Shown here one piece after another: positions 13 through 2,025 of a stretch of DNA of 5,096 nucleotides. The DNA is from a virus (taxonomy: Duplodnaviria; Heunggongvirae; Uroviricota; Caudoviricetes), in IMG/VR virus record IMGVR_UViG_2531839237_000024; one strand, 5' to 3'. Every line of letters starts with the position of its first letter. Position 1 is the first letter of the stretch. The notes beneath the pieces are model-generated. The model made no database searches. It worked only from the letters and a program-made list of their open reading frames with translations, and was not told the DNA's origin. The position numbers and the translations under genes are program-made.

Positions 13-2025
13 TTGATGAAAATGCCAGAAGTTAACGCCATGTATCCTGAACTTAAACTGCATGCCATCGGGTGGGTTAAGCATAAATGTGAGCCTGGCG
101 CTAAATGGCCTGAAATTCAGGCAGAGATGCGCATCTGGAAAAAACGTCGCGAAGGTGAACGCAAGGAAACCGGAAAATACACGTCTGTTGTTGATCTCAC
201 CCGCGCCAGAGTCAACCAACAGAACACTGAAAACGCTGCTGAAAAAACCGGGGCTGTCACTGTTGCCATTCGCCGCGAATACAAACAGACATGGAAAACA
301 CTCGACAATGAACTGGCCTGCGCCCTCTGGCCCGGTGATGTGGATGCAGGAAACATTGACGGTACCATCCATCGCTGGGCGACAAATGAGGTTATCGACA
401 AGGATCGCGAAGACTGGAAGCGTATCTCAGCATCAATGCGCAAACAGCCCGAAGCACTTGGCTATGACCGTCAGACTATTTTTGGCCTTGTTCGCGAACG
501 TCCGATCGATATTCACAAAGATCCCGTTGCACTGAACAAATATATCAGTGAATACCTGACGACAAAGGGCGTGTTTGAACATGAAGAAACAGACCAGAGC
601 TCTACTGATGCTCTCCAGCCGTCAGCAGCACAAACTGCTCCAGTGGAGACGGCAGAATCCGATACTCAAAAAAATGAAATCCTGGTGGAAGCTGAACCAT
701 CTGTAGAGCGTGAAGGACCATTTTATTTCGTCTTTACCGATAAGGGCGGGGAAAAATACGGCAGGGCAAACAAACTTTCTGGTCTGGACAAGGCGCTGGC
801 TGCCGGCGGTACCGAAATCTCAAAAGAAGAATATTTTGCCCGAAAAAATGGCACATACACGGGCTTACCGCAAAATGTGGATACCGCTGAAGATTCCGAA
901 CAATCAGAGCCGGTAAAAGTTACCGCTGACGAAGTAAACAAAATTATGCAGGCAGCCAATATCAGCCAGCCTGACGCCGATAAATTGCTTGCTGCATCAC
1001 GTGGTGAATTTGTTGAAGGGATTAGCGACCCGAATGATCCGAAATGGGTGAAAGGGATCCAGAGTCGCGACGCTGAGGACCAGAATCAGCCCAACGTGAA
1101 ACAAAATGAGCCAGAAGCGGAACAAAACAGCCCGGATACGCAACAAAACGGGCCAGAAGAACAACAACCAGAACCAGCAGTGCAACAGGAACTGGAAAAA
1201 GTTTGCACCGCATGCGGTCAGACCGGTGGCGGCAACTGTCCTGACTGTGGTGCGGTGATGGGGAACGCAACCTACCTGGAAACATTCGATGAAGAGAATC
1301 AGGCTGAAGCTCAGAAAAATGATCCGGAGGAAATGGAAGGCACTGAACATCTGCACAAGGAGAACACTGGCAGCGATCAGTATCACGCCAGCGATAATAA
1401 AACTGGCGAAACAGCAAATCCCTTAATTAAAGTGAACGGTCATCATGAAATCTCATCCACCAGCAGGTTGTGGCACCATCTGATGATTGACCTTGAAACA
1501 ATGGGAAAAAATCCTGATGCGCCAATAAACTCTATAGCCGGTAAGTTTTTTGATCCGGCAACCGGAGAGATGGGGCCAGAATTCAGCAAAACTATCGATC
1601 TGGAAACCGCAGGTGGGGTCATCGATCGGGACACCATTAAGTGGTGGCTGAAACAGTCACGCGAAGCACAATCCTCCATTCTGACCGATGAAATCACGTT
1701 GGATGATGCACTGCTGCAATTCCGGGAATTTATCGACGAAAACTCCGGTGAATTTTTTGTTCAGGTCTGGGGTAACGGTGCAACTTTCGACAACGTGATT
1801 TTACGCCGTTCATATGAACGGCAGGGGATCCCCTGCCCGTGGCGTTACACCAATGATCGCGATGTAAGAACGATGGTTGCTCTGGGACTGGTGATGGATT
1901 TCGACGCAAGAACGACTATTCCATTCGAAGGTGAACGCCATAACGCCCTGCACGATGCGCGTTACCAGGCAAAATACGTTTCAGCCATCTGGCAAAAACT
2001 GCTCCCGAGTCAGGCTGATTTTTAA
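13..2025 (+). CDS. Multi-domain prophage accessory protein: unknown N-terminal domain, acidic repeat linker, CxxC-x7-CxxC zinc ribbon, C-terminal DEDDh (DnaQ/RNase T-like) 3'-5' exonuclease domain
   Basis: Uninterrupted 670-codon frame. C-terminal region (about aa 485-665) carries DEDDh exonuclease motifs in the right order: MIDLET (nt 1483-1500), [15 protein letters not shown]. The start is uncertain: the track uses TTG at 13, ATGs follow at 16 and 22, and the frame is open back to nt 1, so the gene may begin upstream of the window. Confidence 0.8.
   Translation: [670 protein letters not shown]
1081..1185 (+). repeat. Five tandem degenerate 21-bp repeats inside the large CDS, encoding heptapeptides QNxPxxx
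   Basis: Translation reads QNQPNVK / QNEPEAE / QNSPDTQ / QNGPEEQ / QPEPAVQ, with recurring caaaa(c/t)...cc(a/g)ga units in the DNA, immediately upstream of the zinc-ribbon codons. Confidence 0.7.

Follow-up and report, generated by a model that had tools for sequence, protein, structure and literature searches.

The gene at positions 1 to 2025 of a 5,096-nucleotide (nt) stretch of prophage DNA (IMG/VR record IMGVR_UViG_2531839237_000024; here the window, meaning the whole stretch) encodes a DEDDh 3'-5' exonuclease carried on a scaffold of the type found in RecE, the exonuclease VIII of the Rac prophage. We tentatively propose that this enzyme processes DNA 3' ends during the phage lytic cycle, a reading that we hold to be plausible but short of probable. 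The proposal builds on what was observed directly: the identity of the gene, the architecture of its product with an intact active site, purifying selection, the position of the gene in its operon, and a pattern of nuclease swapping among its relatives.

An earlier note on this DNA, made from the sequence alone, had described a complete open reading frame (ORF) of 670 residues at 13-2025. These limits had to be revised. The frame is open from base 1 of the window and the long coding frame stops at 2023-2025; in identical E. coli O157:H7 genomes the full coding sequence (CDS) has 823 codons (L001:8554-11025; RefSeq WP_000034474.1, "3'-5' exonuclease") with a start 447 nt upstream of the window, so that its first 149 codons lie outside it. 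The TTG at position 13 is only the start-like codon that comes first inside the window, an artefact of its edge. The 674 codons present in the window are identical to the matching part of the L001 CDS. Residues are numbered here on the full-length protein, which adds 153 to the numbers of the earlier note (its D493/E495 are our D646/E648). The 823-residue protein has a beads-on-a-string architecture: three folded modules, an acidic segment with a zinc ribbon, and the DEDDh domain. Its features in the window are as follows (pLDDT, predicted local distance difference test score of the AlphaFold2 model; dN/dS, ratio of non-synonymous to synonymous substitution rates):

1 to 2025, plus strand: ydfE-type 'RecE-scaffold::DEDDh' exonuclease, last 674 codons and stop of 823 (open frame, L001 CDS, identity of the translation)
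1 to 168, plus strand: C-terminal part (residues 150-205) of module 1 (residues 1-205, YdfE_N region; pLDDT about 95, PF27430, dN/dS 0.04-0.13)
286 to 573, plus strand: module 2, helical (residues 245-340, YdfE_C region; pLDDT about 97, PF27432, BLASTP to RecE)
715 to 858, plus strand: module 3, a small beta-hairpin/helix (residues 388-435; pLDDT 90-96, dN/dS 0.02-0.10)
973 to 1428, plus strand: RecE-shared segment (residues 474-625) with a conserved peptide, acidic/Gln-rich linkers and the zinc ribbon (BLASTP, local alignment)
1204 to 1248, plus strand: zinc ribbon, CxxC-x7-CxxC, C551/C554/C562/C565 (motif, pLDDT about 75-78, dN/dS 0.03-0.05)
1471 to 2022, plus strand: DEDDh 3'-5' exonuclease domain (residues 640-823; PF16473, DexA fold match, residue mapping)

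The exonuclease domain matched PF16473 (Rv2179c-like) from end to end (profile 1-177 of 177, E 2.5e-62, 210.1 bits against a cutoff of 27). Moreover, D646, E648, D746, H796 and D801 (nt 1489-1491, 1495-1497, 1789-1791, 1939-1941 and 1954-1956) aligned to D7, E9, D119, H186 and D191 of T4 DexA (exonuclease A). Judged by these residues the active site is intact, and the full-length profile match together with all five residues bears out the DEDDh motifs that had been recognised at the C-terminus. In the AlphaFold2 model, residues 640-820 had a pLDDT of about 95, and the best Foldseek matches were the T4 DexA structures 8KEN and 8KEL (E 3.6e-10), followed by RNase T and oligoribonuclease (Orn); 8KEL was also matched by sequence among PDB sequences (E 1e-6). 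DexA is the nearest solved relative by both sequence and fold, with all catalytic residues conserved, although the identity is about 25% and DexA is a standalone protein of 227 residues with extra loops. As for Rv2179c of M. tuberculosis, the namesake of the profile matched here end to end, it is described as an exoribonuclease and differs in being a single-domain, cellular protein; it was found neither among the PDB sequence hits (E up to 1) nor among the top 50 fold matches.

Standalone homologues of the DEDDh domain were present in 784 phage records. One of them, gp34 of phage epsilon34, is 52% identical to the domain and lies beside an annealase in the gene order SAP-SSB-DEDDh-Abc2; this standalone nuclease has been assigned to the recombination module as a DnaQ-like member (Zheng et al., Genome Res 2025, PMC12315714). 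Like the window gene, gp34 is encoded in the early-left operon, but it is a single domain between SSB and Abc2, whereas in the window gene the domain is joined to a RecE-type scaffold, with no Rec-module genes next to it. Note that the neighbours of the standalone homologues differ in other phages. Separately, a fusion relative of 641 residues (P0156) carries K, N and G at the E648, D746 and D801 positions of its DEDDh domain, which suggests that an inactivated nuclease may have been retained on the scaffold.

Outside the exonuclease domain, the protein is related to RecE. Residues 262-625 aligned to residues 278-591 of Rac RecE (BLASTP, E 4e-59), with high identity from residue 474 onwards, zinc ribbon included. 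RecE-type scaffold modules make up the first ~625 residues of the protein. The homology was also detected at the DNA level, where window positions 978-1427 matched recE 1365-1772 with 76% identity, ending just before each nuclease domain. The segment at 973-1428 is likely to be the crossover region for nuclease swapping. The PD-(D/E)XK 5'-3' domain of RecE was not found: the alignment stops at RecE residue 591, and there was no DUF3799 or PDDEXK match in Pfam. The RecE equivalog NCBIfam NF007259 reached 260.7 bits against a cutoff of 1269, with only its N-terminal and middle region matched. The two genes hold the same early-left operon position next to xis-int; however, RecE has a PD-(D/E)XK 5'-3' nuclease and RecT as its partner, while the window protein has a DEDDh 3'-5' domain and no RecT following.

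Next, we surveyed this mosaic family by searching 1.84 billion cluster representatives. The module sets of the YdfE and RecE N-termini are freely mixed among the relatives, and these YdfE/RecE N-terminal modules were joined to a DEDDh domain in some proteins (for example P0121, P0123, P0127 and P0137) and to a RecE-type PD-(D/E)XK domain in others (P0138, P0157). A further set of scaffold relatives (P0129, P0139, P0143, P0144, P0169 and P0194; 700-790 residues, YdfE_N plus YdfE_C) carries no recognisable nuclease. Their C-terminal ~260 residues had no Pfam match, and these relatives may be what PMC12315714 calls 'RecE-2' proteins. Moreover, in one chimera (P0124, L005 6001-8418) the N-terminus of Rac RecE, 100% identical over residues 1-277, is joined to the DEDDh domain; this gene belongs to a Rac-like prophage with kilR, ydaE and sieB, located at the same DUF4224-xis / int / mtfA site and lacking recT. 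Where the scaffold carries PD-(D/E)XK, RecT comes directly after it (Rac, L022, P0138). Where it carries DEDDh, xis and/or int come after it, and RecT never did in all the contexts examined.

The AlphaFold2 model, made from 60 homologues, gave confident modules at residues 1-205, 245-340 and 388-435, at the zinc ribbon (pLDDT about 75-78) and at residues 640-820. Because the linkers between the modules are disordered and the predicted template modelling score (pTM) was 0.37, the arrangement of the domains relative to each other is not fixed. The zinc ribbon and acidic linkers of the earlier note were both recovered, the ribbon at the four cysteines listed above and the flanking linkers as regions of low model confidence; eight of the nine aligned relatives that carry the RecE-shared segment kept the ribbon. 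Module 2 aligned weakly to RecE residues 278-336 (BLASTP), and module 3 is missing from Rac RecE, appearing as a gap in the alignment. Within the otherwise disordered region, the peptide of residues 474-501 (window 973-1056) is near-identical in Rac RecE and could be a docking motif for a partner.

We then compared five alleles in ten pairs by the Nei-Gojobori method, the other alleles having 84-93% nucleotide identity to the window allele. Given enough divergence, dN/dS was 0.02-0.13 in every folded module, against mostly 0.2-0.9 in the linkers, and all the folded modules are under purifying selection. Module 2 gave 0.05-0.10 in nine of the ten pairs, the remaining pair (0.28) having almost no synonymous divergence. 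The stretch of residues 436-501 was more variable in this respect, at about 0.1 in three pairs and 0.28-0.46 in six, with one undefined. All five alleles are exactly 823 codons long, the most distant differing from the window allele at about 16% of nucleotides.

What is this gene? Residues 1-255 of its product are 89% identical to the pseudogene ydfE (b1577) of the K-12 prophage Qin, which IS2 cuts off after about 255 codons, and the neighbourhood dicB - ydfD (DUF1482) - ydfE - int is common to the window prophage and Qin. The window gene is therefore an intact ydfE, and K-12 has lost module 3, the zinc ribbon and the entire exonuclease domain. In support of this, both YdfE_N (PF27430) and YdfE_C (PF27432) are present, as assigned from precomputed Pfam annotation of P0001 and P0002 (99-100% identical to the window protein), together with dicB-DUF1482-exo-xis-int synteny. 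PHROG 2082 ("exonuclease") was also matched over its full length. The N-terminal 190 residues of the 670-residue frame, previously said to match nothing, correspond to the end of YdfE_N plus YdfE_C and have PHROG 2082 and RecE relatives. As a whole, then, the first description of this gene stood in its domain calls and failed in its ORF limits and in its claim of an orphan N-terminus.

Homologues with at least 80% query coverage were found in 3586 of 5426 complete E. coli genomes (two thirds), in up to nine places per genome and often in several copies in enterohaemorrhagic E. coli. They also occur in phages, for example in Tritos, HannyBb and mEp460_ev081, whose genome records were deposited as complete. 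The gene is functional and very common. In phage vB_EcoM-606R7 (L017 3081-5524), which occupies the tRNA-Ser/mtfA site, the homologue is annotated as two CDSs (307 + 455 residues), split or frameshifted.

The exonuclease is the last gene of the early-left operon, in the order cI-like, DUF1391, dicB, DUF1482/ydfD, exo, xis and int, and it fills the slot held by recE-recT in Rac. A promoter scan detected no sigma-70-like promoter directly upstream of it, which is a weak negative. By its context the gene is not in a moron or defence-island setting. The original framing as an accessory or lysogenic-conversion gene gives way here to a last gene of the early-left operon, with a RecE-type scaffold, no PADLOC family and no promoter directly upstream. 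Note that a 480-nt stretch without annotated genes (L001 7604-8085) separates the DUF1391 gene from dicB, at the position of the DicF small RNA in Tritos and in K-12 Qin.

The phages that carry this gene are rich in Chi and poor in recombination genes of their own. In the window annotation, no RecT or other annealase gene lies between the exonuclease gene and xis, and tblastn found no RecT in L001. Likewise, tblastn of the three complete phages Tritos, HannyBb and mEp460_ev081 found no RecT, RecE nuclease, epsilon34-type SAP annealase, SSB or Abc2, and their annotations list no Exo or Gam. The 5.1-kb window contains two Chi sites, against 0.09 expected, both on the minus strand:

1457 to 1464, minus strand: Chi site GCTGGTGG within the exonuclease gene (motif scan)
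2146 to 2153, minus strand: second, co-oriented Chi site GCTGGTGG, within xis

Tritos has 11 (1.7 expected), HannyBb 7 and mEp460_ev081 9, mostly on one strand, and in each of these phages the homologous gene also contains a Chi site. Phages with the window-type gene thus resemble the class described as having no Rec module and high Chi, whose growth benefits from RecBCD (PMC12315714).

If the enzyme processes 3' ends in the lytic cycle, as we tentatively propose, its gene would be read from the early-left promoter once the prophage is induced, along with dicB and ydfD. The scaffold at the N-terminus would then tether or target the enzyme, and the DEDDh domain would strip nucleotides from free 3' ends (tails or flaps) of replicating or recombining phage DNA. 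Since an annealase, Exo and Gam are all missing from these phages, the enzyme would act beside host recombination functions, working with RecBCD/RecA on Chi-rich phage DNA and not with a phage annealase. The trimming of 3' tails might allow host RecBCD to load. The choice of DNA 3' ends as substrate, the timing of expression and the part played in recombination or replication are the steps of this proposal that we infer.

Several points weigh against it. The authors of PMC12315714 excluded from Rec modules the DnaQ-type genes that occur sporadically near int, and they remark that 3'-5' exonucleases usually antagonise, and do not promote, recombination. Scaffold relatives without a recognisable nuclease (P0129 at L025 5001-7109, and others) occupy the equivalent slot, kilR - X - xis - int, and therefore the scaffold may serve a function unrelated to DNA end processing. 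Fold searches of PDB and BFVD gave no informative structural match, and no functional clue, for the N-terminal modules; PF16473 is named after an exoribonuclease, which leaves room for RNA as the substrate; and literature searches (ydfE; Rv2179c with prophage) returned no functional study. The Chi contrast is a weak one and serves only as a lead, because a fragment of a Rac-like RecET phage also carries Chi (3 sites in 24.6 kb). Finally, EcD ('HREX'), a standalone E. coli homologue of DexA, has been reported to cut DNA with 5-hydroxymethylcytosine (5hmC) and to give protection from T4 (Kang et al., NAR 2025, PMC12153337).

A broader idea, which we regard as doubtful, is that the YdfE/RecE N-terminal region is an autonomous docking platform for a host or phage partner in DNA metabolism, armed with interchangeable nuclease 'warheads': PD-(D/E)XK with RecT, DEDDh without RecT, or none. 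The N-terminal region of RecE, whose function is unknown, enhances linear-linear recombination (PMC11611040), and were the platform real, the long-sought role of the N-terminal 600 residues of RecE would be revealed. The DEDDh form could then represent an annealase-free recombination strategy or an anti-host one, for example the preparation of ends for host RecBCD on phage DNA rich in Chi, or the removal of a host nucleic acid with a free 3' end.

The activity of EcD raises another possibility, unlikely in our opinion, that the window gene is a prophage nuclease for anti-phage defence or superinfection exclusion, in which the DEDDh domain would degrade competitor DNA (modified) or RNA 3' ends (TONDO-like) and the N-terminal modules would sense or target them. 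A preprint (PMC13344964) shows defence against RNA phages by other DEDDh enzymes of prophages that carry auxiliary domains, so a defence role is possible in principle; the wide spread of the gene in prophages, at up to nine places per genome, would also suit it, and the CBASS (cyclic oligonucleotide-based antiphage signalling system) exonuclease Cap18 was among the fold matches, at rank 26. However, the gene belongs to a repressed early-left operon with no promoter-like site upstream, and its scaffold is common to RecE recombination nucleases. PADLOC-DB 2.0 gave no defence-family match; the sole hit, to a generic exonuclease effector (E 0.03, 23 residues), was at chance level. EcD, like the window protein a DexA-family DEDDh exonuclease encoded in E. 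coli, differs in being standalone and beginning at the DEDDh motif (MIDTET; this start was read from primers only), and it was not among the 150 closest cluster representatives. The specificity of EcD is attributed to W152 and D169 plus the loss of D90 (PMC12153337). In a MAFFT alignment at about 25% identity, DexA W152 and D169 fell on T766 and V780 of our protein and the D90 position was kept as D718, so the 5hmC signature of EcD is absent; among the relatives, the position equivalent to W152 varies (W/Y/T/C). With these residues not conserved and no PADLOC defence family, the defence-type targeting suggested in the earlier note found no footing.

Expression from the early-left operon would suit the timing of a counter-defence nuclease, the anti-defence idea of the earlier note and a quite unlikely role in our judgement. 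Such an enzyme would destroy an immune nucleic acid with a free 3' end (retron multicopy single-stranded DNA, primers or guides) or linear signalling oligonucleotides. Its modular N-terminal region might serve to bind a target in the host, and the swaps between nucleases of opposite polarity, or none, on one scaffold could reflect an arms race. Nothing at all points to such a substrate, however, and searches of Pfam, PHROGs, PDB and BFVD revealed no similarity to known anti-defence proteins, while the nearest relatives with a known context are recombination-module genes. In addition, DEDDh enzymes require a free 3' end and are not known to open cyclic nucleotides.

It is also improbable that the enzyme works as a 3' exoribonuclease on RNA of the phage or the host in the manner of Rv2179c, for example by trimming transcripts of its own operon, which in Qin-type prophages is also the source of the small RNA DicF. 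The full-length membership of PF16473, a family named for an exoribonuclease, and the rank of RNase T and oligoribonuclease as the next-best structural matches are consistent with it, as are the name '3'-5' exoribonuclease' that NCBI gives to many alleles and the presence of dicF in the same operon in Tritos and K-12. Against these stand the closest solved relative by sequence and fold, which is the DNase T4 DexA, and a scaffold and gene position typical of a DNA recombination nuclease. Moreover, K-12 makes DicF although its ydfE has been destroyed by IS2.

That the gene is a decaying relic of a cryptic prophage, with no current function, is very improbable: the K-12 copy is an IS2-cut pseudogene and split or partial copies exist, but every folded module is under purifying selection, the length of 823 codons is kept in five alleles, the active site is intact, and the gene is present in phage records deposited as complete.

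The novelty of the gene itself is low, because the family is already annotated and named: RefSeq, PHROGs and Pfam all include it, and a paper of 2025 mentions its class. Profile and structure searches placed the protein in a family that is catalogued, named and functionally unstudied, which supports the initial view of a multidomain prophage protein with an intact DEDDh exonuclease and an uncharacterised role. What gives it interest is the uncharacterised scaffold and the natural exchange of nucleases of opposite polarity, in what is among the commonest E. coli prophage genes and one under clear purifying selection. Its anatomy bears on the role of the large non-catalytic N-terminal region of RecE, which is relevant to linear-linear recombineering, and on why Chi-rich lambdoid phages without a recombination module carry a 3'-5' exonuclease.

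Finally, we place the gene in its surroundings. The window is 99.8-99.9% identical to E. coli O157:H7 chromosomes across nearly its full length (megablast). Its final 21-35 bases lie beyond the match to the best O157:H7 genomes, which ends at 5075 or 5061. It represents the integrase end of a Qin/Rac-type lambdoid prophage adjoining tRNA-Ser(CGA), beyond which come mtfA, tRNA-Asn and the beginning of a giant adhesin gene with immunoglobulin (Ig)-like domains. Downstream of the exonuclease gene, the prophage ends with two genes:

2084 to 2287, plus strand: excisionase-like gene (DUF4224), directly downstream (PF13986, E 3.8e-15; PHROG excisionase; annotation)
2287 to 3366, plus strand: tyrosine integrase, at the prophage end next to tRNA-Ser(CGA) (PF00589, PHROG 1 integrase)

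The tRNA-Ser(CGA) gene is at 3375-3464 on the minus strand, and since its 3' end is only 8 nt from the integrase stop (3366), the attachment site of the prophage overlaps this end of the tRNA. We looked for overlapping or antisense genes within 13-2025 and rejected them, as only short unsupported ORFs are present there. Beyond the prophage, the mtfA ORF (window 3519-4355) has a possible GTG start at 3519, whereas RefSeq places the start at 3558 (265 residues); the alignment to the mtfA NCBIfam equivalog begins at residue 14 of the longer ORF. The gene for the giant Ig-like-domain protein (7983 nt in L001) begins within window positions 4845-5096 and continues past the window edge.

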